Below, piece after piece: positions 3,020-30,233 of a DNA stretch of 32,000 bases. Within the stretch, counting starts at the first letter, position 1; each line of letters begins with the position of its first letter. Made by a program: the position numbers and the translations under genes. This stretch comes from Nanoarchaeum equitans Kin4-M. GTDB taxonomy: Archaea > Nanobdellota > Nanobdellia > Nanobdellales > Nanoarchaeaceae. Under the pieces are notes generated by a model. It made no database searches. It saw nothing but the letters and a program-made list of their open reading frames with translations, and was not told the DNA's origin. The stretch covers positions 30,001-62,000 of the forward strand of contig AE017199.1 in assembly GCA_000008085.1 (NCBI GenBank), read 5' to 3'.

Positions 3020-4420
3020 ATGAAACGTTTTCTCCCAGCAGTAGTAGTTTTGGGTTTAGCCCTAGCAGCACCAACAGCGCAATTGGAAGTAATAGATTAC
3101 CCTAATACAGTATATACTAAAGGAGTAATGGCGAAGAGCACAATTCCAATTACTATAAAATATAATACTACTGATGCAACAAACTCCAAGCTTATAGTAT
3201 ATTTGATAAACCAAAATGAGAAAAACTTAGCATTGATGGAAGAATACAAAATCGATGCGGGAAAAACTAAAATAGAAACTATCGAAATTCCATTATATAA
3301 TTTGCCTGATTACCCAAATGTTGATGATGGTATATACACAATAAAGTTTAGGTTAATCTCTTTTGATAACAATGGAAATACTGCGGCTGATGAAAAAGAG
3401 ATAAACGTTTCTATTAATGAACCATTTGATGTCGCACAATATGATTTAGATGTTCTAGATTTACCTTTACCAGAAGACAAAATAGTATTTACCAACACAA
3501 AAACGAAATTCCAAATCCCTATAATTTATGATGGGATAGCAAATAGCGATTATGTTACTGTAACATTATGCGCTATAGCTAATGGAATAAAATTGGCTTG
3601 CAACGATACCAGCAAAACATTAACAACAAGGGAAAACTTAGTAGAATTAGTAATGAATATTCCATCCTTTACAGGGGATGGCAAATTAATATTATCGGTA
3701 AAAGACAACAATGGGCAAAACATAGTAAAAGAATATGCTGTTAAATTTGTTGATGGCACATTAGATGTAAATGTAATGCCTGTAAGCGAAAAGGTAATGC
3801 AAGGCGAATCCACATCTATTATAGTTAGAGTAAACAACCCAATAGAAAAAAGCAGAACTGTATACTTAACAATAAAAACCCCAACAGATACAATAACCAA
3901 AACTATTTATTTAGAAGGCTATAGTAGTGCCCAATTAGTTATTCCTATAAAGGTTAAAACCAATTCAAACAAATTTAATGTATATGTATACGCAAGCGAT
4001 GGAGTATATACATACAGCAAACAATTAACATTAGATGTTGTCTCTAAACAAGATATAATAAACAACATCGATGTTAGTTATGAAAAAGACAAAATAGAGC
4101 TAATATTATATCCAAAGCAACCAGGGGTTGTGACAATAAAAGTGTTGGCCGATGGCGCTATAGTAGATCCTTCCATAAAAACCATATCTTTAGACTACAA
4201 AGCTAAAACCGTTAGTTTTAATTACAAACCATTAAAAGACACAGCAACAATAAAATTTGAAGTATATGATCTAAACAATAATAAGATAGCTGAAAAGCAA
4301 ATAAAAATAGTGCAAAAGAAAGCCCAACAATTCAATTGGTTATTACCCATAGCAATAATAATAGCCCTAGGATTGGGCCTATATTTAGGTAGAAAAAAGA
4401 AAGAAGAAATTGTTGAATAG
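3020..4420 (+). CDS. secreted multi-domain (beta-sandwich-like) surface protein with C-terminal TM anchor
   Basis: Sec-type signal MKRFLPAVVVLGLALAAPTAQ. Beta-rich repetitive composition. C-terminus WLLPIAIIIALGLGLYLGRKKKEE (TM segment plus basic tail). Confidence 0.6.
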   Translation: MKRFLPAVVVLGLALAAPTAQLEVIDYPNTVYTKGVMAKSTIPITIKYNTTDATNSKLIVYLINQNEKNLALMEEYKIDAGKTKIETIEIPLYNLPDYPNVDDGIYTIKFRLISFDNNGNTAADEKEINVSINEPFDVAQYDLDVLDLPLPEDKIVFTNTKTKFQIPIIYDGIANSDYVTVTLCAIANGIKLACNDTSKTLTTRENLVELVMNIPSFTGDGKLILSVKDNNGQNIVKEYAVKFVDGTLDVNVMPVSEKVMQGESTSIIVRVNNPIEKSRTVYLTIKTPTDTITKTIYLEGYSSAQLVIPIKVKTNSNKFNVYVYASDGVYTYSKQLTLDVVSKQDIINNIDVSYEKDKIELILYPKQPGVVTIKVLADGAIVDPSIKTISLDYKAKTVSFNYKPLKDTATIKFEVYDLNNNKIAEKQIKIVQKKAQQFNWLLPIAIIIALGLGLYLGRKKKEEIVE

Positions 4421-4754: not shown

Positions 4755-5015
4755 ATGGCCTTTAGCCATACTAAAAAGGTAGGTCCTACTGGTAGGTTTG
4801 GTCCTAGGTATGGTTTAGGTATAAGAAAAAGAGTACTAACTGTTGAAATAAAACAAAGGAAAAAACATGTTTGTCCCTTCTGTAGGTCTAAAGCAGTAAT
4901 TAGAGAGGCATATGGAATTTACAGATGTAAAAAATGCGGAAAACAATTTACAGGTTTAGCCTATTACCCATACGAGCATTTGCACGAATATTACAAAATT
5001 AGAGGGGGGCAATAA
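4755..5015 (+). CDS. rpl37ae: ribosomal protein L37Ae (eL43)
   Basis: MAFSHTKKVGPTGRFGPRYG start typical of the family and a CPFC...CKKC zinc ribbon. I prefer ATG 4755 to the TTG 4749 of the ORF track. Confidence 0.9.
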   Translation: MAFSHTKKVGPTGRFGPRYGLGIRKRVLTVEIKQRKKHVCPFCRSKAVIREAYGIYRCKKCGKQFTGLAYYPYEHLHEYYKIRGGQ

Positions 5016-5199
5016 ATAAAACCATATCTCCCCTAACAAATAGTTCTTTCAAATTCTCTTCATCAATTTTTACCTCTTTCATATATAAATTAACATGTAT
5101 ATCCGAGCTTTCCAATAAACCTTCAATGGTTTTGCCATTTTTTAAATAAACCTTTACTCTTTTGCCTTTCAAAGAAGCTAAAAACTCCAATGGTCTCAT
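4999..5199 (-). CDS. Sm-like (LSm/SmAP) RNA-binding protein
   Basis: 66 aa. Sm1-like VKVYLKNGKTIEGLLESSDIHVNLYM and Sm2-like VRGDMVLFI. Convergent 17-nt overlap with rpl37ae. Confidence 0.8.
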   Translation of the reverse strand: MRPLEFLASLKGKRVKVYLKNGKTIEGLLESSDIHVNLYMKEVKIDEENLKELFVRGDMVLFIAPL

Positions 5200-5218: not shown

Positions 5219-5228
5219 ATTTATAAAT
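5219..5228. promoter_or_regulatory. palindromic TATA box ATTTATAAAT shared by divergent Sm gene and tRNA 5' half
   Basis: Perfect 10-nt palindrome. Its centre (5223.5) is 24.5 nt from the Sm ATG (5199) and 24.5 nt from A5248. Confidence 0.6.
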
Positions 5229-5247: not shown

Positions 5248-5301
5248 ACGCGGGGTGGGGCAGCCTGGAGTGCCCGGGGGGCTCATATCCCCCTGGCCGC
5301 C
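5248..5301 (+). tRNA. tRNA 5' half, anticodon CAU (Met, initiator-like), with 14-nt GC-rich 3' extension
   Basis: A(-1), acceptor strand CGCGGGG, U8, D arm GGGC/AGCCUGGAGU/GCCC, G26, anticodon-stem strand GGGGG, loop CUCAUA. This is followed by UCCCCCUGGCCGCC and a T7 run. No T arm or acceptor 3' strand follows. Confidence 0.75.
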
Positions 5302-5308
5302 TTTTTTT
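5302..5308 (+). terminator. oligo-T terminator after tRNA half
   Basis: TTTTTTT immediately after the GC-rich tail. Oligo-T is the usual archaeal termination signal. Confidence 0.55.
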
Positions 5309-5317
5309 CATATTTAA

Positions 5318-5389
5318 TGGACCCGCCGGGATTCGAACCCGGGGCCTCCGCCTTGCGAGGGCGGCGTCCTACCGCTGGACTACGGGCCC
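5318..5389 (-). tRNA. tRNA-Ala (CGC)
   Basis: Reverse complement: GGGCCCG UA GUCC AGCGGUA GGAC G CCGCC CUCGCAA GGCGG AGGCC CCGGG UUCGAAU CCCGG CGGGUCC A. Perfect cloverleaf with the G3:U70 Ala identity pair. No encoded CCA. TATA-like TATTTATT (5410-5417) is centred 24.5 nt upstream of G1. Confidence 0.95.
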
Positions 5390-5477: not shown

Positions 5478-6131
5478 ATGGATAGGAAAATTATTGAAGA
5501 AAAAGCAAAAATTGTTGATGAAATTCCAAAAGTAATAAAGGGCAAAGACTATCAATTAAAGCTAACAAATATGGTATTCCATGTTAGGTTAACTTCCTCA
5601 AAACCATTAGATTTAAGTAAAGTTGCAGAGGAAATGGTTAATGCCATATATGAAAAAGACCGATTCCCTGGGGTTAGGCTAAAACTAAATGTGCCAGACG
5701 AAAATGGGGGGATGCACACAATTTCTATTCTATTATTTAGAAAAGGCCCAATAATCGTTTCTGGTGTGACTAAAAAAGAGCATTTGATAGCTGCAATAGA
5801 ATACGCTTGTGACATAATAAGAAAATATGGCGGAGAATGTATAGAAGAACCAGAAATAAAATTAGAAAACATGGTATGGACAGGCTATCTAGATTATGAA
5901 GTAAACCTAGCTTTGTTAGCAGAAAAAGACCCAGATGCTGAGTATAACCCCGAACAATTCCCAGGTTTAACGTATAGGCTAGGCACAGACAAAAAAGGTA
6001 GACTACATTTATTCAAAAACGGTAAAATTGTAGTTCCAGGAACCAGAAGTGTGGAAGAAACCAAAAAAATCGTTGAAGAGGTAATAGAAAGAATTAAAAA
6101 ATATGGAGTAGCGAATAAGAAAAGTGCATGA
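5478..6131 (+). CDS. tbp: TATA-box binding protein
   Basis: Two TBP repeats (NMVFHV...FPGVRLKL...LLFRKGPIIVSG and NMVWTG...FPGLTYRL...HLFKNGKIVVPG). TTTAAA (5452-5457) is centred 23.5 nt upstream of the ATG. Confidence 0.85.
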   Translation: MDRKIIEEKAKIVDEIPKVIKGKDYQLKLTNMVFHVRLTSSKPLDLSKVAEEMVNAIYEKDRFPGVRLKLNVPDENGGMHTISILLFRKGPIIVSGVTKKEHLIAAIEYACDIIRKYGGECIEEPEIKLENMVWTGYLDYEVNLALLAEKDPDAEYNPEQFPGLTYRLGTDKKGRLHLFKNGKIVVPGTRSVEETKKIVEEVIERIKKYGVANKKSA

Positions 6132-6771: not shown

Positions 6772-7566
6772 TATAGGCAATAAAATATTATCATAAGGGG
6801 TTAACGCTTCAGCTATTGGGAACAAAAATCCTATAGGCATTTTAGTTACTAAAAATCCAATAATAGAACCTATGTAACCATATAATAGAACAAAACAAAT
6901 GTTTTTGCTTAAACTAGCTAAACCATCAACCCATGCTTGGTAAACCATTAATTTGGGTTCTATAAAATAATATATTATACTGCCTAAAACTAAAGTAAAT
7001 GCACCAATTCCTTTTCCGTCTCTATCGTAATAATCCAAAAACCTTTTTACTATTGGGTTATTCCTATGCTTGTATAGTATTAGCCCTATAATCAATAAAG
7101 CAAACAAAACATACAAAGCTATAGAATTAAAAACATCGAACATAAAAGCTATCGCCATAGCGCTCGCTATATGGAAAATCTTTCTATTGCCTTCTTTTCC
7201 CTTACTCTCCAAAAAGCTAACAAACCAATAAATTATTGGTATAAATAAGAAAGACAAAATTATTTGTTCTATTGTATGCCTTCCAAGTATAACTCTTAAT
7301 AAACCTACTAACAATGGAAATACTACTAGTTTTACATCTTTGTAAAACATTAAAAGAACAGAAGCGATTAATGTGTGCCCACTAGGGAAAGCATATGGGT
7401 CTATATGGGATACCCTATAAACATGGAACATCATTTTAGCAGTAATTGTTATCGCTATTGTACCTAACAATAAATTAAAATAATGGAAAAATTTTTCTGA
7501 ATCCCAATGTCTATAAATATCGTATAAAACTAGCAATAAGGGTATATAGCTTATAAAAGAGATCAT
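6739..7566 (-). CDS. polytopic membrane protein, PAP2-like phosphatase motifs with extra C-terminal membrane domain
   Basis: PSGHT and GRHTIEQ resemble PAP2 motifs 2 and 3. The C-terminal half has NRKIFH and WVDGLASL, which are reminiscent of the dolichol-kinase/CTP-transferase family (tentative). Confidence 0.45.
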   Translation of the reverse strand: MISFISYIPLLLVLYDIYRHWDSEKFFHYFNLLLGTIAITITAKMMFHVYRVSHIDPYAFPSGHTLIASVLLMFYKDVKLVVFPLLVGLLRVILGRHTIEQIILSFLFIPIIYWFVSFLESKGKEGNRKIFHIASAMAIAFMFDVFNSIALYVLFALLIIGLILYKHRNNPIVKRFLDYYDRDGKGIGAFTLVLGSIIYYFIEPKLMVYQAWVDGLASLSKNICFVLLYGYIGSIIGFLVTKMPIGFLFPIAEALTPYDNILLPILMGVIFFIYH

Positions 7567-9014
7567 CTGTAGCGCTCTCTTAACAATTTAATAAAATATT
7601 TTTCATTAACAGGCTCTCCAAAGGATTTTTCTAACAAAACTTTTGGTTCATACATAGAGCCGTATTTATGAATTTTTTCTCTTAAGTATTCTCTAATCGT
7701 AGCAAAGTTTTTGTTTTCTATATGTGTTTCTAAGTCTGGGAAATTGTATTTTATTTGTGCTGCAATTAGATTACCTAAAGTATATGTTGGGAAATACCCT
7801 ATTGCTCCTAAAGACCAATGTATGTCTTGCAAAGCCCCTTCACTATCGTTTTTAGGTTTTATTCCCAAATATTGTTCCATTTTTTCATTCCATATTTCAG
7901 GAATATCCCTAACATCGATTTTGCCTTCTATTAAATCACGCTCTATTTCGTACCTTAATATTATATGAAAATTATAAGTTACATCATCAGACTCAACTCT
8001 TATTGGGATAGGCCTTACTATTGTGAAATACTTAAATAGATCTTCGCTATCAGCATCTATTTTTAGTATATTCTTTACTAAAGGCTCTAAGAATTGGGTA
8101 AACTCTTTTGTTTTAGCAACAACTATTTCCCAAAACCTAGATTGTGATTCATGTATTCCTAGGGATACACCCCCTTGCAATGGGGTTTTCCATAGCTTTT
8201 CATCTATTTGTCTTTCATACAAAGCATGGCCAAACTCATGTATTACCGCTAAAAGAGACCTTCTGAAATCTTTTTTATGATACCAAGTGGTAATTCTTAT
8301 ATCATATAGGCCTAATTCTATAGTAAAAGGATGTGCGCTAACATCTAATCTCATATGGTTAAAATCAAAACCAATCATAGACAATACTGTTTTATTCAAT
8401 AATTCCATTCTTTCTCTATTATATGGTTCATTTTCCAACCAATGATAGTCATGCCAAATCTCTTTTATTCTTTCGTATTCTTTTTTCAAATCCCTCTTTA
8501 ATCTATTAAATAAGGGATCTATGTCTTTAACTGTATAGCCCTCTTCGTATCTATCTAACAAAGCATCGTATGGTGAATATTTATAGCCCAAATATTCAGC
8601 AAACTTTCTTTTAAATTCGACTATTTTTTCTAAATATGGAGCAAATCTGTTAAAATCAGATTTTTTCTTTGCATCTTCCCATACCCTTACAGCTTCTACT
8701 ATAAGCTTATTGTATTCTTCTAACTCTTTTTTAGGAATTTTTGTATAATAGTATATACTTCTTTTTAACACTCTTGCTATTCCTTTTTCAAAATCGTTCT
8801 CTGCTTTTTCTTCTAATTGTTCAACCCATTTAATAAATTCTTTGTCTGTCATTAAATCTTGTATCATTGATTCTATTTTCGATGTTATAAATCCTCTCTC
8901 CTTTGTTTCGCCCTTAGGCATATAAGTTTCAGAATCCCATTCCAATACAGCATTGGCTTTCGCTAGTACCCATATTTTTTCATAATGGTCTAAAATCTTT
9001 TTTACCAAATCCAT
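7563..9014 (-). CDS. M32 (Taq-type) metallocarboxypeptidase
   Basis: HEFGHALY zinc motif, HPF, IHESQSRFWE and DIHWS..GYFPTYTLG, all typical of family M32. Confidence 0.85.
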   Translation of the reverse strand: MDLVKKILDHYEKIWVLAKANAVLEWDSETYMPKGETKERGFITSKIESMIQDLMTDKEFIKWVEQLEEKAENDFEKGIARVLKRSIYYYTKIPKKELEEYNKLIVEAVRVWEDAKKKSDFNRFAPYLEKIVEFKRKFAEYLGYKYSPYDALLDRYEEGYTVKDIDPLFNRLKRDLKKEYERIKEIWHDYHWLENEPYNRERMELLNKTVLSMIGFDFNHMRLDVSAHPFTIELGLYDIRITTWYHKKDFRRSLLAVIHEFGHALYERQIDEKLWKTPLQGGVSLGIHESQSRFWEIVVAKTKEFTQFLEPLVKNILKIDADSEDLFKYFTIVRPIPIRVESDDVTYNFHIILRYEIERDLIEGKIDVRDIPEIWNEKMEQYLGIKPKNDSEGALQDIHWSLGAIGYFPTYTLGNLIAAQIKYNFPDLETHIENKNFATIREYLREKIHKYGSMYEPKVLLEKSFGEPVNEKYFIKLLRERYR

Positions 9015-9322: not shown

Positions 9323-9940
9323 TTATATTTGCATCTTATATCTGCCTCTCCTTTCTATGTCTTCTACCCTTTTCAAAACTTCATCATTTTTATAATATTG
9401 GGCAAATTCTTCCCATCTATCTTTTAGCAATTTTCTTAATTCATACAAATCTACAGCTTTGTCTTCTACTCTATTAGAAATAAAGGACAGACCAAAATCT
9501 ATTATATATAGTTTATCTCCCAATATAAAGTTTTTTGGATGCAAATCGCCATGTATAATATTATTTTCATGCAAAGTATTAATAATTAAGGCCATAGGTT
9601 TTAGATAATGGACAAAATTGCTCACATTTAAGGGTTGGCCTTCAATATATTGCATAGCAATTATAAATTTGTTTTCATCCATAAGATAGGGCTCTGGAGT
9701 ATTAGTTATTTTGTAAGCTTTTTGCAATATTTTGTATTCTCTTCTTAGTCTAAACTTTCTAAGAGAAATATCTATTTTTTCATGTCTATATTTTTTAGGA
9801 GGCCTATATTTTATTATGTAAGGTTTTTTGCCTATTCCTAAAGAATCGTTATAGTCTAAATATATTATTCCTTCACTTCCCCGAGCTATTTCCATAGGAT
9901 TGTCCTTCGTATACAAATAAATATTTATCGCATCTCCCAT
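9323..9940 (-). CDS. bud32: Bud32/PRPK-type small protein kinase (KEOPS subunit)
   Basis: RGSEGIIY glycine-loop equivalent, HGDLHPKNF catalytic loop and IDFGLS. At ~200 aa it is typical of Bud32. The real start is probably MEIARGSEG at 9895. Confidence 0.8.
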   Translation of the reverse strand: MGDAINIYLYTKDNPMEIARGSEGIIYLDYNDSLGIGKKPYIIKYRPPKKYRHEKIDISLRKFRLRREYKILQKAYKITNTPEPYLMDENKFIIAMQYIEGQPLNVSNFVHYLKPMALIINTLHENNIIHGDLHPKNFILGDKLYIIDFGLSFISNRVEDKAVDLYELRKLLKDRWEEFAQYYKNDEVLKRVEDIERRGRYKMQI

Positions 9941-11099
9941 AGACTTTAAATTTTATTATTAAAGCTTTGTCCATAAAAGTGGCAATAAAGTTTCTAACTA
10001 TTAAATCATAAATAAGGCTTTCTTTTTTTGATAACCCTTTAGGGATTATACCAGTAGGATAAATAGCGGGATGGGCATCCTCTATATTACCATTGTTCGG
10101 CTTTAGGATGGGTTTTTTAAGCAAATAACTTATGTAATAACTATAACCCCACAATTTTAGTTTTTCTAGTATATATCTATAGTCTAAGCTCTCTGGCAAT
10201 ATATTTGAACTAGTCCTAGGATAGCTTATATAGCCATTTGTATATAGTTTTTGCAATATTAACAAAGTATCCTTGGGCGATATTTTATAGAATTTGTATG
10301 CATCCTGTTGTATAGCGCTTAAATTGTATGGATGTGGAGGAGGCAAATAAACTTTTTCCTCTTTTACTCTTACTATTTTTAATTCTTTGCATTTGGCTAT
10401 CTCTTTGGCCCTTTCTAAATTTTTAAGCTTCTCTATATAGTAAAATTTGTAGTTTTTGTGTATAAATACTACTCTATAATACTCTTCTGGTATGAAATTA
10501 GATATCTCTTTTTCTCTCTCATATACTAATCTTAAAGTTGGCCCCTGCACACGGCCAATGCTTAAGGTTACATCTTTAACATAATGCCTTAAAGCATAAG
10601 TTAATGCTCTAGACAAATTAATCCCATAAAGCCAATCTATTATATGTCTAGTCTCTCCTGCTATTGCTAAGTTTTTGTCTATAGATTCTCTTAGATTAAA
10701 AAATGCTTCCCTAAGATCTTTTGGAGTTAATGCAGAGAAAACCATTCTTTTCGCATTGGTTTTGTTTAGAGCAAACCTCAATATATTATAACCAATTAGC
10801 TCTCCTTCCAAATCATAGTCTGTTGCAACTATTACTTCTTTTTCGTTTTTATATTTTGAAAATGCTTTAGCAAATTTTGTTTTACCTTTTTCTACATTCC
10901 AAAAATAATCAAATACTGGATAACCTCTTTGGTTTGTATCTAAATTATATATATGGCCTGCTGCAGGTATAACAATAACGGGTTTGCTATCTATTTTAAA
11001 ATAATATTGGGGGGGATTTTTTGATATTAGCTTATAATTTGTAGTAAGGGAAAAAGTTATTCTTTTTGCTACCGAGGGTTTTTCCGCTATAATAATCAT
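9873..11099 (-). CDS. topA: DNA topoisomerase IA, N-terminal fragment only (split gene)
   Basis: MIIIAEKPSVA and TDYDLEGE (Toprim), the active-site Tyr context GYISYPRTSS, and AHPAIYPT. The ORF stops at 408 aa without the remainder of the core. The downstream DNA is fully occupied by bud32. Confidence 0.85.
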   Translation of the reverse strand: MIIIAEKPSVAKRITFSLTTNYKLISKNPPQYYFKIDSKPVIVIPAAGHIYNLDTNQRGYPVFDYFWNVEKGKTKFAKAFSKYKNEKEVIVATDYDLEGELIGYNILRFALNKTNAKRMVFSALTPKDLREAFFNLRESIDKNLAIAGETRHIIDWLYGINLSRALTYALRHYVKDVTLSIGRVQGPTLRLVYEREKEISNFIPEEYYRVVFIHKNYKFYYIEKLKNLERAKEIAKCKELKIVRVKEEKVYLPPPHPYNLSAIQQDAYKFYKISPKDTLLILQKLYTNGYISYPRTSSNILPESLDYRYILEKLKLWGYSYYISYLLKKPILKPNNGNIEDAHPAIYPTGIIPKGLSKKESLIYDLIVRNFIATFMDKALIIKFKVYGRCDKYLFVYEGQSYGNSSGK

Positions 11100-15753: not shown

Positions 15754-15780
15754 ATTGCGAAATATGAATAAAATTTAATA

Positions 15781-15829
15781 ATGATGATGGACCAAATTAC
15801 AGAATAATGAAGACGACCACGGGCACTGA
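15781..15829 (+). ncRNA. C/D box sRNA (2'-O-methylation guide)
   Basis: AUGAUGA(C)-UGGACCAAAUUA(12)-CAGA(D')-AUA-AUGAAGA(C')-CGACCACGGGCA(12)-CUGA(D). Intergenic, with a GC-rich second guide in AT-rich surroundings. Confidence 0.75.
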
Positions 15830-15830
15830 G

Positions 15831-15840
15831 TTTTAAATAT
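15831..15840 (+). promoter_or_regulatory. TATA box of aRF1 gene (leaderless)
   Basis: TTTTAAATAT starts 1 nt after the sRNA D box. Its centre is about 23 nt upstream of ATG 15858. Confidence 0.55.
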
Positions 15841-15857
15841 TTTATCATTTACATCCC

Positions 15858-16934
15858 ATGGATGAAAAAGAGAAATACAAACTAAAATCCCTCTTAAGAC
15901 AATTAAAAAGCATAGAAGGGCGGGGTACAGAATTGGTTTCCCTATATATACCATCTAACTATCCTATAGGAAAAATATTAGACCAATTGAATTACGAATA
16001 CGCTACTGCTGCAAACATAAAAGATGATACTACTAGAAAAAATGTACAAGCAGCATTAGCTAAAATAATAAACTATTTGAAAGATTTTAAGAAAATCCCT
16101 GAAAATGGGTTAGTAATTTTTGCTGGCAACATAGCAGGGAGGGGCGACCAAGATGTTAGACTATGGGCTATTGTACCTCCAGAAAAAAGTAACCTAAAAC
16201 TATATAGATGTGATTCTAAATTTTATGTAGAGCCATTAGAAGAAATGTTAGAAGAGAAAAAACTATATGGGATAGTAACTATAGATAAAGGAGAAGCAGC
16301 AATAGGTTTAATTAAAGGGCGAAAACTTATAGTTTTAGACGAATTCGAAAGCTGGGTTCCAAGGAAACACCATAAAGGAGGGCAATCCGCCCGAAGGTTT
16401 GAAAGGCTAATAGACCAAGCCACACAGGAATGGTTGCAATATGTTGCGGAAAAAGCGAGACAATATTTCGATAAATACAAAGACAAAATACAAGGTATTA
16501 TTATTGGAGGATCTGGTTTCGCTAAACACGATTTTATCGAATATTTGCCTTATTATTATAAAGACAAAATAATTGCTATTGTAGATACCGGTTATAGCGA
16601 TGCCTATGGGTTAAGAGAAGCTTTATATAGAGCAGAAGATAAATTAAAAGAATTGGAAATAGAAAAAGAGAGAAAAATTTTATCAGATTTGTTTAAAGCT
16701 ATAGCATTGGGTAGAAAAGACATCGCTTTAGGATATGAAGAAGTTAAAAAATATTTGGAACAAGGACTAGTTCAAAAAATAATTGTTATGGAGGATTTTC
16801 CCAAATTGGATGAAATATTGGAATTGGCAGAAAAACATAATGTAGATGTAGAAATAATTGAAGGAGGAACAACAGAAGCAGAACAATTTAGACCAATTGG
16901 TATAGCAGCTTTTCTATATTACGCATCAGAGTAG
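15858..16934 (+). CDS. prf1: peptide chain release factor aRF1
   Basis: GGQSARRFERL (GGQ motif), NIKD (NIKS-like), and size and architecture typical of aRF1. Confidence 0.9.
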   Translation: MDEKEKYKLKSLLRQLKSIEGRGTELVSLYIPSNYPIGKILDQLNYEYATAANIKDDTTRKNVQAALAKIINYLKDFKKIPENGLVIFAGNIAGRGDQDVRLWAIVPPEKSNLKLYRCDSKFYVEPLEEMLEEKKLYGIVTIDKGEAAIGLIKGRKLIVLDEFESWVPRKHHKGGQSARRFERLIDQATQEWLQYVAEKARQYFDKYKDKIQGIIIGGSGFAKHDFIEYLPYYYKDKIIAIVDTGYSDAYGLREALYRAEDKLKELEIEKERKILSDLFKAIALGRKDIALGYEEVKKYLEQGLVQKIIVMEDFPKLDEILELAEKHNVDVEIIEGGTTEAEQFRPIGIAAFLYYASE

Positions 16935-16974
16935 AGAAGACTCATCATTAATCAGTTGTCCTCGACTTCTTCAT
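16926..16974 (-). ncRNA. C/D box sRNA candidate spanning the 3' ends of two convergent CDSs
   Basis: Minus strand: AUGAAGA-AGUCGAGGACAA(12)-CUGA-UUA-AUGAUGA-GUCUUCUCUACU(12)-CUGA. This is the same 7-12-4-3-7-12-4 layout as the other two. Confidence 0.6.
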
Positions 16975-18219
16975 TAATATTACATTCTCTATATGGGGAG
17001 TATTAGGAAACATATCTAAAGGTTGCATGTCAATTATTTTATAACCTTTCAATTTATTTATATCTCTTTTTTGAGTATAAGGATTGCATGAAACATAAAC
17101 TATAGTATCGGGGTTTATTTTTTCGATATACTCTATAGCCTTATTTGTTAAACCTGCTCTTGGTGGGTCTACAATTATTTTGTTAGCCTTTATTATTGGA
17201 GCTTTTTCGACAGGCGAAGCAATAAATTCTGCATCTATATTGTTTATAGAGGCATTTAGTTTGGCCATCTCTACAGCTTCTTCCACAATTTCTATACCAA
17301 TTACTTTCTTAACTTCATTAGCTATTTGCAATGAAAACAATCCAACCCCGCTATACAAATCTAAAACAACATCATTTTCAGAGGGTTCTAAAAATTCCTT
17401 TACTATTTTTACTAAGTTTACAGCTTGGTAGGAATTAGTTTGAAAAAAGCTATTAGGCGATATGTAATATTCTATATCCAATATTCGTTCTCTCAAAAAT
17501 TTGCTTCCATAATAATGGTAAAGTTTTTCGCTTATTGATACATCTCCTAAATCCTCTCTAATTCCCCAATATACTGAAGTAACCAAATCTTTTATGTTTT
17601 CGATAAAATCCCACAATTCCTCAAATTTCTTTCTTTTATATGTTATTATATGGATCATCCTTTCTTTAGTAAATTTGCCCTCCCTTATCACTAAATATCT
17701 AAGAAAACCTGTGTGCTTAACTGTGTCCCAACTAGGTATTTTGTATTTTTCTATGAATTTGTTAAACTCATTTATTATTATTTCTGCTTCTTTTGAAAGC
17801 ATTTTGCATTCTTTTATTGGAATATAACCATACCATTTGCCAGGCTCTTTTAAGGAAACCTTATTATATATAGGGTAATCCATCCTATTTCGATAATAGA
17901 TAGTTTTTGGCGAAGGAATAATATCTTTATCATAGCCAAACAAATTTTCTATAACTTTTTTCTTAAATTCCAATTGGTATTGGTAATCCATTAATCCCCA
18001 TAGACAACCACCACATTTTCCTAAATGGGCACAATATTTATTGGATGTCCTATAAGGGCTTTCCTCAATTATTTTTACTATTTCCCCAATTTTCTTTTTC
18101 CCTTTCCTTCTAACTTTTACCTCTACTATATCTCCAGGGTAAGCAAATGGAACATGTATATTATTGCCCACTCCATAGCCTTTCTCGTCAAACCCCTCTA
18201 TATATATTTTCATAGCCAT
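16948..18219 (-). CDS. RumA/TrmA-type RNA (uracil-5)-methyltransferase with TRAM domain
   Basis: TRAM-like N-terminus, Cys cluster CAHLGKCGGC, FFQTN and DPPRAGL. The ORF track extends to 18291, but TTTAAATA about 24 nt upstream favours the MAMKIY start at 18219. Confidence 0.8.
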   Translation of the reverse strand: MAMKIYIEGFDEKGYGVGNNIHVPFAYPGDIVEVKVRRKGKKKIGEIVKIIEESPYRTSNKYCAHLGKCGGCLWGLMDYQYQLEFKKKVIENLFGYDKDIIPSPKTIYYRNRMDYPIYNKVSLKEPGKWYGYIPIKECKMLSKEAEIIINEFNKFIEKYKIPSWDTVKHTGFLRYLVIREGKFTKERMIHIITYKRKKFEELWDFIENIKDLVTSVYWGIREDLGDVSISEKLYHYYGSKFLRERILDIEYYISPNSFFQTNSYQAVNLVKIVKEFLEPSENDVVLDLYSGVGLFSLQIANEVKKVIGIEIVEEAVEMAKLNASINNIDAEFIASPVEKAPIIKANKIIVDPPRAGLTNKAIEYIEKINPDTIVYVSCNPYTQKRDINKLKGYKIIDMQPLDMFPNTPHIENVILMKKSRTTD

Positions 18220-22237: not shown

Positions 22238-24031
22238 ATGACTATAGTAGTACCTGATACCTCTGCGCTTATAGAAAAGGCTATATCTAAAATGATAAAA
22301 GAAAACAAAATCAAACCTTCAAAAATAGTTATACATAACGCTACTATCGCAGAATTGGAACATCAAGCCAATGAAAATAGAGAAATAGGTTATTTAGGAT
22401 TAGAAGAAATCGAAACTCTAAAAGAGATGGCCGACCAATATGGGTTTACTGTAGAGTTCCAAGGGGAAAGACCAAAAGCTGAAGAAATAATACTGGCAAA
22501 AAAAGGAGAGATAGATAATAAAATTAGAGAGTTGGCTAAACAATTGAATGCTATATTAATTACTGCAGATAGAACCCAATATTATGTAGCAAAGGTTTTA
22601 GGAATCCAGGCAATATTTTTAGAAAAGCCAAAAAGAGAAAAATTGTTGTTTGAGCAATATTTTGATGAAAATACTATGAGTGTACATTTAAAAGAGGGCT
22701 TGCCCCCATTGGCCAAAAAAGGAACTCCTGGTAAATGGGAGTTAGTTAGAATAACGGACAAACCTTTAACAAAAAACGATTTAGAAGAAATAATAAAAGA
22801 GATCGCTGAAGAAGCTGTTAGCAGAGAAGATTCTTATATAGATATTGAGGGCGAAAACATTTTAGTAGCACAAATAGGCAAATACAGAATTGTAGCGGTT
22901 AAACCTCCATTGAGTGATGCAATAGAAGTAACTATAGTAAGACCCGTTAAGAAACTATCCTTAGAAGATTATAAAATTAGAGAAGAATTATTAGAAAGGC
23001 TAAAAGAAAAAGCTCATGGTATTTTAATAGCTGGTGCCCCAGGTATGGGTAAAACCACATTCGCCCAGGCATTGGCTATGTTCTATGTAAAATTAAACAA
23101 AGTGGTAAAAACTATAGAATCCCCAAGAGATATGGATTTGGGAAAAGAAGTAACCCAATATTCTTTAACTCAAGGCAAAACCCGAGAAATATATGCTTTA
23201 CTATTATTAGCTAGACCTGATTATGTTTTGTTTGATGAAGTTAGAACAGAAAGAGATATCAAATTGTTTGCAGATTTAAGATTAGCAGGAATAGGAATGA
23301 TAGGAGTAATACATGCAAATAGAGCGATAGATGCTATACAAAGATTTATAGGAAAAATAGAATTGGGTGTAATCCCTCAAGTAGTTGACACTGTTATTTT
23401 TATAGATAAGGGCCAAATAGCCAAAGTATATACATTAGATATGGTTGTTAAAGTCCCTACTGGAATGAAGGAAGAAGATTTGGCGAGACCCGTAATAGAA
23501 GTTAGAGATCTATATACAGGCAAATTGGAATATGAAATTTATGTTTTTGGAGAGGAAACTGTTGTAATGCCCATACATGGCGAGCAAATGCCAAATGCTT
23601 TAGCGAGATTGGCAAAAATCGCTATAGAGAATGAAATAAAGAGATTTCTAAAAACAGATGTAAAAGTAGAAATAGAGTCCCCAAATAGAGTTACAGTTTA
23701 TGTTCCAAAAGGGTATAGAAAGAGACTAGTAGGAAAAAGGGGAAAAACAATTGAAAGCTTTGAAAAAATGTTGGGTGTAAGAATAACTGTAAAAGAGATA
23801 GGCGAAGAAGAGCCAGAGTTTAACATAAAGGAAACAAACAAATATCTAATAATAGAGTTACCCCCAGAATATTATAGAAGGGTTGTAACTATTCTAATCA
23901 ATGGAAGACCCTTTGTAGACGCTATAGTAGGGAAAGATGGAAAAATAAAAATCGCTAAAAATAGTGATTTAGGTAAAGTACTATACAATGCTCTAAAAGG
24001 TGGAGCAAAAATTGATATAGAGCTTAAATAA
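22238..24031 (+). CDS. PIN domain - PilT-like ATPase - KH domain protein
   Basis: N-terminal PIN-like VVPDTSALIE...ITADR, Walker A AGAPGMGKTT, LFDEVR, and a C-terminal KH motif VGKRGKTIESFEKMLGV. Confidence 0.75.
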   Translation: MTIVVPDTSALIEKAISKMIKENKIKPSKIVIHNATIAELEHQANENREIGYLGLEEIETLKEMADQYGFTVEFQGERPKAEEIILAKKGEIDNKIRELAKQLNAILITADRTQYYVAKVLGIQAIFLEKPKREKLLFEQYFDENTMSVHLKEGLPPLAKKGTPGKWELVRITDKPLTKNDLEEIIKEIAEEAVSREDSYIDIEGENILVAQIGKYRIVAVKPPLSDAIEVTIVRPVKKLSLEDYKIREELLERLKEKAHGILIAGAPGMGKTTFAQALAMFYVKLNKVVKTIESPRDMDLGKEVTQYSLTQGKTREIYALLLLARPDYVLFDEVRTERDIKLFADLRLAGIGMIGVIHANRAIDAIQRFIGKIELGVIPQVVDTVIFIDKGQIAKVYTLDMVVKVPTGMKEEDLARPVIEVRDLYTGKLEYEIYVFGEETVVMPIHGEQMPNALARLAKIAIENEIKRFLKTDVKVEIESPNRVTVYVPKGYRKRLVGKRGKTIESFEKMLGVRITVKEIGEEEPEFNIKETNKYLIIELPPEYYRRVVTILINGRPFVDAIVGKDGKIKIAKNSDLGKVLYNALKGGAKIDIELK

Positions 24032-24080
24032 TCAGCCGGTTTGAGAATCTTCATCTCTCGGGCGGGGATAATTTCATCAT
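24032..24080 (-). ncRNA. C/D box sRNA fused to the 3' end of tRNA-Gly
   Basis: Minus strand: AUGAUGA(C; its first A is the tRNA discriminator)-AAUUAUCCCCGC(12)-CCGA(D')-GAG-AUGAAGA(C')-UUCUCAAACCGG(12)-CUGA(D). Confidence 0.7.
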
Positions 24081-24150
24081 GCGCCCGCCGGGATTCGAAC
24101 CCGGGTCACGGGCTTGGAAGGCCCGCATCCTACCACTAGACTACGGGCGC
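24080..24150 (-). tRNA. tRNA-Gly (UCC)
   Basis: Reverse complement: GCGCCCG UA GUCU AGUGGUA GGAU G CGGGC CUUCCAA GCCCG UGAC CCGGG UUCGAAU CCCGG CGGGCGC A. No encoded CCA. Confidence 0.95.
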
Positions 24151-24168
24151 AGAGATAGAAATGAAAAC

Positions 24169-24736: not shown

Positions 24737-25813
24737 CTATTTTGCCGCCGTGCCCGAGCGGCCAAAGGGGTCGGGCTGCAGACCCGATGGTCGGGGGTTC
24801 GAATCCCCCCGGCGGCTTAGCATTAGTATAATAACAGTTAGCCCAATAAGAAAGCTTAGAAAAGCGCCTTCCAATTGGAACACTTTAATAAAATATAGAG
24901 AGCTTAACAAAGTTGCTATAATCCCTATTAATAAAGTTTTTATCTTTAGCTTTAGGAATTCTATGGCATATATATAGCCAAAATACGCTCTTACAATAAC
25001 TAAAAATACTACATAAATTAAGTAGGGCAATACTATTTTGTATTTGGGATTAATCAAAGAAAAAGCTATATCTATTATTGGAGGTGCAAAGAGATAAAAT
25101 AGTATAGATACTATTAGGGGTAAAAGCAACAAATCAACTATTGGGTTTTTGTTTTTCACTCTATGCAAAAATATATCGGTACTTGAAGACACATGTAACA
25201 CTACTGAAGAAAACCCCAAAACTAAACTGTATATCGCCGCTTCTTTTTTTAGGTTATTCAATAATAAAACTGCTTGTGGTATCAAAGGTAAAACCATCAT
25301 TAACAAAACTATTATATGGGTTTTTTCTAAAAAACAAACTTTTGGTTTTCCAACAATTAAATAATAAAAGGGGGCTAAACTAACAAAATAGGCTAAAAAA
25401 ATATTTATATCCTTGGTTAGCAAAAAAATTAGCAAACTTATAATAGAGAATAGTAAAAGCTTATGGAATTGCGATTTTTTAATTAATAGGGTTCTCCCGA
25501 TTGTTAAGGAGATTTGGGCTATAAAGAATACCAAACCAACTGTGGCCCATTTCTCTATAAAGGACAAAATTAGAAATATTATAGTTCCAGCAATTAAATA
25601 AAATCTAATGCATTCCAATTTATTATTTTGATGCCAAAGATTTATGCTTCCTTCGTAAGAAAATATTAATCCCGCTTTAGCACCAAGAGCTTTGAAAAAA
25701 GAGATTACTCCATATATATTAGGAGGAAATTCCTTAATTAATAATAAAGTGACGAAAGCGTTTAATAAATAACTAATCATAAAAGATAGTCTATCATAAA
25801 TAAAGTCTTTCAT
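24737..25813 (-). CDS. polytopic membrane protein, Wzx/MOP-flippase-like
   Basis: About 10 hydrophobic helices, divergent from a GT4/GPT gene. The last 27 codons (RRGDSNPRPSGLQPDPFGRSGTAAK) are the antisense of tRNA-Cys. Confidence 0.5.
   Translation of the reverse strand: MKDFIYDRLSFMISYLLNAFVTLLLIKEFPPNIYGVISFFKALGAKAGLIFSYEGSINLWHQNNKLECIRFYLIAGTIIFLILSFIEKWATVGLVFFIAQISLTIGRTLLIKKSQFHKLLLFSIISLLIFLLTKDINIFLAYFVSLAPFYYLIVGKPKVCFLEKTHIIVLLMMVLPLIPQAVLLLNNLKKEAAIYSLVLGFSSVVLHVSSSTDIFLHRVKNKNPIVDLLLLPLIVSILFYLFAPPIIDIAFSLINPKYKIVLPYLIYVVFLVIVRAYFGYIYAIEFLKLKIKTLLIGIIATLLSSLYFIKVFQLEGAFLSFLIGLTVIILMLSRRGDSNPRPSGLQPDPFGRSGTAAK
24744..24817 (+). tRNA. tRNA-Cys (GCA)
   Basis: GCCGCCG U G CCCG AGCGGCCAA AGGG G UCGGG CUGCAGA CCCGA UGGUC GGGGG UUCGAAU CCCCC CGGCGGC U. 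Has the U73 discriminator typical of tRNA-Cys. TTTTTAAAA (24716-24724) is centred 24 nt upstream. No CCA. Confidence 0.93.
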
Positions 25814-26696: not shown

Positions 26697-26818
26697 GTGG
26701 GAGGGCCATAGCGGCCCGGGAACCACCCGTACCCATCTCGAACACGGAAGTTAAGCCGGGCCGCGTCCCGAGTGGTACTGCCCCGCGAAGGGGTGGGAAG
26801 CTCGGGATGCCCTCCCGC
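26697..26818 (+). rRNA. rrf: 5S ribosomal RNA (not linked to 16S/23S in this window)
   Basis: GC-rich 122 nt. The terminal helix GUGGGAGGGC pairs with GCCCUCCCGC. Conserved CCCAUCUCGAACACGGAAGUUAAGC block. The exact ends are uncertain by about 2-3 nt. Confidence 0.9.
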
Positions 26819-29996: not shown

Positions 29997-30233
29997 ATGA
30001 TGCTATTACAAACAGAGAAGGCCCTTAGACTATTGGAACAATATAATACCATAACTATCTTAGTTCCTAGGGAATACACTAAATCCAAAATAAAAGAATT
30101 CTTTGAGAAAAAAGGCTACAAAGTTAAAAAAGTTAACACTTTAATAACAAAGAAAGGGCTAAAAAAGGCATATGTCAGATTTAAAGAGGAAGGTGTAGCT
30201 AGAAAAGTAGCCGAAGAGTTGGGAGGTTTATAA
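29997..30233 (+). CDS. rpl23: ribosomal protein L23 (uL23)
   Basis: TEKALRLLEQYNTITILVPREYTKSKIKEFFEKKGYKVKKVNTL...KKAYVRF is a typical uL23 pattern. Confidence 0.85.
   Translation: MMLLQTEKALRLLEQYNTITILVPREYTKSKIKEFFEKKGYKVKKVNTLITKKGLKKAYVRFKEEGVARKVAEELGGL

Follow-up and report, generated by a model that had tools for sequence, protein, structure and literature searches.

An orphan tRNA 5' half with anticodon CAU, read as the published initiator tRNA-Met half gene of Nanoarchaeum equitans

Introduction

Is a tRNA gene that breaks off directly behind its anticodon a dead remnant, or is it one of two pieces from which a working tRNA is made? The split tRNA genes of N. equitans are the classic case of a functional tRNA assembled from two transcripts, and they have fed the debate on the origin of tRNA from half-sized genes. 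Their first publication, with the 5' half of the initiator tRNA-Met (iMet) among them, is reportedly that of Randau and colleagues in 2005.

The question is raised here by positions 5248-5308 of a 32,000-nt stretch of DNA (hereafter the window), which covers positions 30,001 to 62,000 of the forward strand of the N. equitans Kin4-M contig AE017199.1. We conclude with near certainty that this locus (genome 35248-35308) encodes the 5' half of the initiator tRNA-Met(CAU), which is trans-spliced. It is already known and not new, and the analysis confirms it as real; being the published iMet 5' half, it makes no addition to the split-tRNA story. The point is rather methodological: a tool-free reading of the raw sequence found the gene and set its boundaries correctly, although it is missed by ARAGORN as well as by the Rfam tRNA model.

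Results

Reading of the locus and its published counterpart

On the plus strand the locus reads directly as the 5' part of a tRNA. The acceptor 5' strand CGCGGGG (5249-5255) is preceded by an A at position -1 (5248), the putative transcription start and extra base of the acceptor stem, and is followed by U8 (T5256) and position 9 (G5257). The D arm consists of GGGC (5258-5261), AGCCTGGAGT (5262-5271) and GCCC (5272-5275). Position 26 is G5276, the 5' strand of the anticodon stem is GGGGG (5277-5281), and the loop CTCATA (5282-5287) holds the anticodon CAT at 5284-5286 and ends with A37 at 5287. The mature-tRNA part, positions 1-37, takes 39 nt (5249-5287). It is followed by the 14-nt GC-rich tail TCCCCCTGGCCGCC (5288-5301), which starts directly after the split position and has G or C at 12 of its 14 nt, and by a run of seven T (T7, 5302-5308), an oligo-T transcription terminator. 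An earlier note, made from the sequence alone, had described an orphan 5' half with anticodon CAU at this place; our reading agrees with its layout base for base, G9 being the only position omitted there.

The identity of the locus is settled by published coordinates. In Table 1 of Chan, Cozen and Lowe (2011, PMC3218864) the N. equitans iMet CAU has its 5' half at 35249(+), with precursor and mature lengths of ~53 and 39 nt, and its 3' half at 3254(+), with ~52 and 36 nt, ligated at 37/38. In window terms (offset 30000) the 5' half starts at 5249, the precursor spans 5249-5301 and the mature part 5249-5287, in exact agreement with the direct reading. The 39 nt counted from 5249 end at A5287, that is A37; the 53 nt end at C5301, immediately 5' of the T7 run, and the difference of 14 nt is the tail. 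This exact agreement is the decisive support for the identity of the locus. The earlier proposals of a split-tRNA 5' half, a candidate for iMet, and of a break after A37 with a 14-nt tail are the same as what had been published. By the same coordinates the partner 3' half lies outside the window, about 32 kb upstream on the same strand. In N. equitans iMet, His, Lys, Gln and two Glu tRNAs are trans-joined, and Ile, Met, Trp and Tyr are cis-spliced (Podar et al. 2013). The 11 tRNA halves and their ends have all been detected by RNA-seq (Randau 2012, PMC3491384).

A break further downstream, after position 43-44, had been offered as an alternative, with a tail of 7 nt. In that case the 5' piece would itself hold the real anticodon arm, closed by GGGGG/CCCCC, and the tail would shrink to the 7-8 nt of UGGCCGCC. 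The centroid fold of 5248-5301 is indeed a GGGGG/CCCCC hairpin with the 7-nt loop CUCAUAU. However, the published ligation is at 37/38 and the mature 5' part has 39 nt with A5287 as its last base (Chan et al. 2011, PMC3218864), and a split after 43-44 would make position 38 a U. A clamp of 7-8 nt would also be shorter than the 12-14 nt of N. equitans halves, a range which the earlier note took from Randau 2005, and than the perfect 13-nt trans-pairing of the Staphylothermus split tRNA-Lys (Chan et al. 2011, PMC3218864). We consider a split after 43-44 extremely improbable. Given the published ligation site, the local hairpin between the G run and the C run, which the free half can form, would be at most a transient structure.

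Transcription signals and the possibility of a relic

A TATA-like box A, TATAAA (5222-5227, plus strand), lies within TTTATAAA (5220-5227), at -26 to -21 from A5248. TTTAAA is found at equal register upstream of the tRNA-Gly and tRNA-Cys genes of the window. In N. equitans box A lies 26 nt upstream of the start of leaderless tRNA and tRNA-half genes (Randau 2012, PMC3491384). From this register we take A5248 as the start site; transcription probably starts at the A of position -1 and stops at the T7 run. With TATAAA in register and T7 directly 3' of the tail, the half has a promoter and a terminator of its own and, judged from these sequence signals, is an independent transcription unit.

The same signals bear on the suspicion that the locus is a dead relic, i.e. 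the 3'-truncated and now unused remnant of a once complete tRNA-Met gene. Such a relic would account for the layout of the tail, in which U, CCCCC, UGGCC and GCC follow each other as tRNA positions 38-51 do: the anticodon-stem 3' strand, the variable region and the start of the T stem. The three full tRNAs of the window have variable regions similar to UGGCC, namely AGGCC, TGACC and TGGTC, and a local anticodon hairpin can close in the free half. Against disuse stand the promoter in exact tRNA register and the T7 terminator directly after the tail, as well as the RNA-seq ends at 35248 and about 35301 and the RT-PCR of the joined tRNA, both in the literature. Moreover, an origin by truncation would not imply loss of function. 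We give practically no credence to a dead relic and keep to the functional iMet 5' half.

For this functional half, the tail, rather than being an arbitrary GC clamp, could be what is retained of positions 38-51 (U38, CCCCC 39-43, UGGCC, GCC) of a formerly contiguous tRNA-iMet. The 5' half would then be a 3'-truncated full gene and the split would be derived, which we regard as rather unlikely. If true, positions 44-51 of the 3' half should be close to UGGCCGCC, and its leader should copy its own 38-51 in inverted form. A second likeness concerns the intron of the elongator tRNA-Met, whose sequence was taken from supplement 2 of Randau 2012 (genome 327399-327461, beyond the window). The stretch GGGGGCTCATAT-CCCCCT of the half (5276-5294) matches GGGGGCTCTTATGCCCCCT, the GC hairpin of this intron, at 17 of 19 positions, a score reached in none of 2000 shuffles. 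This would instead fit a split within an intron hairpin, as in the suggestion that the complementary clamps descend from an intron hairpin (Randau 2012, PMC3491384). Either observation could bear on the origin of the clamp, the layout of the tail pointing to truncation and the hairpin likeness to a split within the intron hairpin.

Assignment to the initiator

The anticodon CAU, read in the loop context CTCATA, is common to initiator tRNA-Met, elongator tRNA-Met and tRNA-Ile2. Initiator tRNAs are marked by three consecutive G:C pairs at 29-31:39-41, and archaeal initiators have an A1:U72 terminal pair. In the half, G29-G31 are present (5277-5281 are all G), with the partner strand belonging to the 3' half. 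Position 1 is C, and an A stands at -1. The combination of C1 with a purine at -1 had been remarked on before, and it matches the report that the 5' halves of iMet and His already carry an extra -1 base, which extends the acceptor stem (Randau 2012, PMC3491384). A-1 may pair with a U on the 3' half.

Could the half then belong to an elongator tRNA-Met or to tRNA-Ile2(CAU) instead? The shared anticodon would allow it, and C at position 1 departs from the A1 typical of archaeal initiators. However, G29-G31 are in place, and A-1 can supply the terminal A:U pair of the extended acceptor stem (Randau 2012, PMC3491384). In Podar et al. (2013) Met and Ile each have a cis-spliced gene of their own, while iMet counts among the trans-joined tRNAs, and Fujishima (2008) groups the half with archaeal iMet tRNAs. 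There is a contiguous, intron-containing tRNA-Met gene at about 327.4 kb, which is the kind of gene that the earlier note had named as speaking against a split. Since 'Met' is listed apart from the trans-joined 'iMet' (Podar et al. 2013) and we read the 327.4-kb gene as the elongator, the split is not refuted. We see next to no chance that the half belongs to the elongator or to Ile2, and hold to the initiator.

Searches and specificity tests in the window

The window has three complete tRNA genes, each found by both ARAGORN and Rfam: tRNA-Ala(CGC) at 5318-5389(-), tRNA-Gly(UCC) at 24079-24151(-) and tRNA-Cys(GCA) at 24744-24817(+). The remark that the other tRNAs of the window are complete is borne out by them. 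On the plus strand at 5249 neither program calls a tRNA, and neither permissive thresholds nor excision of the segment changes this. With the excised 5249-5301 Rfam gives no RF00005 match; all it returns is a weak gabT match and a tRNA-Sec alignment of 16 bits that is out of register. With the excised 5249-5287 it gives zero matches. A T loop followed by the acceptor strand CCCCGCG is absent from the whole window at up to 2 mismatches. These results uphold the observation that a variable loop, a T arm and an acceptor 3' strand are missing near the half. There is also no second copy of the tail complement in the window, where the sole other match has 3 mismatches and lies inside tRNA-Cys.

The window has a G+C content of about 30%, and five GC islands (at least 65% G+C over 40 nt) stand out from it: the 5' half, the three tRNAs and the 5S rRNA. 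The 5S rRNA gene (26698-26818, plus strand) has no 16S or 23S rRNA gene nearby in the window.

When 5249-5287 was joined to a designed 3' half, ARAGORN called tRNA-Met(cat); 17 of 200 shuffled 5' halves were also called, and the joining test is only moderately specific. A loose 5'-half descriptor gave 20 matches in the window against a mean of 9.8 in shuffles, and it was rejected as evidence for being unspecific. Folding of the isolated half is no better than that of shuffled sequence (z = +0.93).

Three protein genes of the window encode proteins identical to those of N. equitans Kin4-M, which has a genome of one contig of 490,885 bp: NEQ037 at 4999-5199(-), NEQ039 (TBP) at 5478-6131(+) and NEQ042 at 7563-9014(-). 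The tRNA-Ala gene converges on the iMet half, and 9 nt separate its 3' end from the T7 run. Past the tRNA-Ala gene the minus strand continues with TTAAATATGAAAAAAAGGCGGCCAGGGGGA, which has no oligo-T. Read-through from tRNA-Ala would, for lack of this signal, yield an RNA with GGCGGCCAGGGGGA. The 3'-half leader is predicted to have this sequence, and such an RNA could compete for the tail.

Other small RNA genes of the window were located as well. The published 58-nt C/D box sRNA3 (genome 54028-54085) maps to 24028-24085(-), its first 37 nt matching 24049-24085; this fixes the offset of 30000 and places the window at NC_005213 30001-62000. The sRNA adjoins tRNA-Gly and has a slight overlap with its 3' end, and the two make up the dicistronic tRNA-sRNA unit already published. 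In Rfam this region has only weak sR10- and sR1-like matches. The published C/D box sRNA1 (15779-15831, plus strand) and sRNA2 (16922-16979, minus strand) flank the eRF1 gene (15858-16934). In Rfam sRNA2 is above the sR45 threshold and sRNA1 has only a weak sR2-like match.

The gene at 9873-11099(-) encodes an N-terminal fragment of topoisomerase I, with a Toprim domain and positions 2-274 of the 411 of the Topoisom_bac profile. We take it to be the split gene NEQ045, the other part being NEQ324.

Searches for the partner and for relatives

The 3' half was also sought in other sequence collections. A pattern scan of genome contigs with GGCGGCCAGGGGGN{25,45}CCCCGCG, designed for both halves, gave, among the matches listed, chance ones in GC-rich bacteria. 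The metagenome scan for the 3' half returned 106 loci, all with at least 49% G+C, none of them AT-rich or nanoarchaeal. The scan of viral contigs for the 14-mer of the tail gave chance matches only, and its single AT-rich locus (L308) is unrelated.

Copies of the locus in culture and metagenome assemblies are 100% identical, and three of these contigs (L232, L233 and L234), from independent short-read assemblies, end inside the T arm of tRNA-Ala. That all three end there suggests that such assemblies break where T-arm sequence is shared, and that a complete 3' half is seldom present in them. One likely cause of the negative metagenome scan is the breaking of short-read contigs in tRNA T arms; a wrong assumption on the sequence of the T loop or the acceptor could be another. 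Contig breaks of this kind can hide tRNA halves from metagenome pattern scans.

Walking upstream along the contigs reached genome position about 20.6 kb (L232). We suspect that a CRISPR array near the contig start, at about 14.7 kb, blocks the upstream walk; by size estimate, the start lies about where the cas operon is expected to begin. Among homologues of the TBP neighbour NEQ039, at most 35-37% identical, no syntenic relative was found. The two of them that were looked up (P0004 and P0007) have a different gene order, IleRS-TBP-MCM.

Discussion

The half would work in the published pathway, which starts with two separate transcripts. For the 5' half the analysis covered sequence layout, coordinates and the signals for promoter and terminator; the other steps are published or suggested by us. 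From the box A promoter of the half gene, transcription would start at A(-1), so that the transcript is leaderless. To our knowledge, N. equitans has no RNase P. The T7 run would end transcription and yield an RNA of about 54 nt, made up of position -1, positions 1-37 and the 14-nt GC-rich tail.

In the next step the tail would pair with the complementary leader of the 3' half, which has its own gene at genome 3254(+), at a distance of about 32 kb. Every half contains a GC-rich stretch whose complement occurs in its partner half only (Randau 2012, PMC3491384). The tail UCCCCCUGGCCGCC is reported to anneal to the 3'-half leader and to be spliced out, both the complementarity and the structure of the junction being taken from the literature. 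The transcript of the 'tRNA-Met' 3' half, which we take as that of iMet, has 2 nt (GC) ahead of its GC-rich stretch (Randau 2012, PMC3491384), and this agrees with the 16-nt leader implied by the precursor and mature lengths (52 - 36).

With the two halves clamped, the tRNA body would fold and a relaxed bulge-helix-bulge would form at the junction. The heteromeric splicing endonuclease NEQ205/NEQ261 would then cleave after A37 and before position 38, and the exons would be joined by an RNA ligase. In vitro, NEQ205-NEQ261 cuts the relaxed bulge-helix-bulge of N. equitans pre-tRNA-Glu, the substrate in that assay being pre-tRNA-Glu and not iMet.

Compared with known systems, the locus belongs directly to the trans-spliced halves of N. 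equitans (iMet, His, Lys, Gln and two Glu). Organism, coordinates, strand, lengths and ligation site are identical to those of the published iMet 5' half, and no difference was found. Within this family the split lies at 30/31 in Lys and at 32/33 in Gln, whereas iMet, His and Glu are all split at 37/38 (Chan et al. 2011, PMC3218864).

The split tRNAs of Crenarchaeota, namely tRNA-Asp of Aeropyrum pernix and Thermosphaera aggregans and tRNA-Lys(CUU) of Staphylothermus, together with the cases of Caldivirga maquilingensis (Chan et al. 2011; Fujishima et al. 2009), resemble the iMet half in having separate half genes, complementary flanks, a bulge-helix-bulge junction and a heterotetrameric endonuclease. 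However, the organisms and the tRNA species are different ones. In Aeropyrum and Thermosphaera, moreover, the halves are only about 160 nt apart, in contrast to about 32 kb for the N. equitans iMet.

With a cis-spliced archaeal tRNA that carries a canonical 37/38 intron, the iMet half shares the splice position and the endonuclease and ligase machinery. The difference is that the iMet 'intron' is discontinuous: one of its two arms is a tail, the other a leader, and they come from different transcripts. Permuted tRNA genes (iMet and Tyr of Thermofilum pendens; Cyanidioschyzon merolae) are likewise disrupted and are resolved via a bulge-helix-bulge-like motif. In them, however, both parts stand at one locus, with the 3' part upstream and the joint at 59/60, and they are not, unlike the iMet halves, two independent transcripts.
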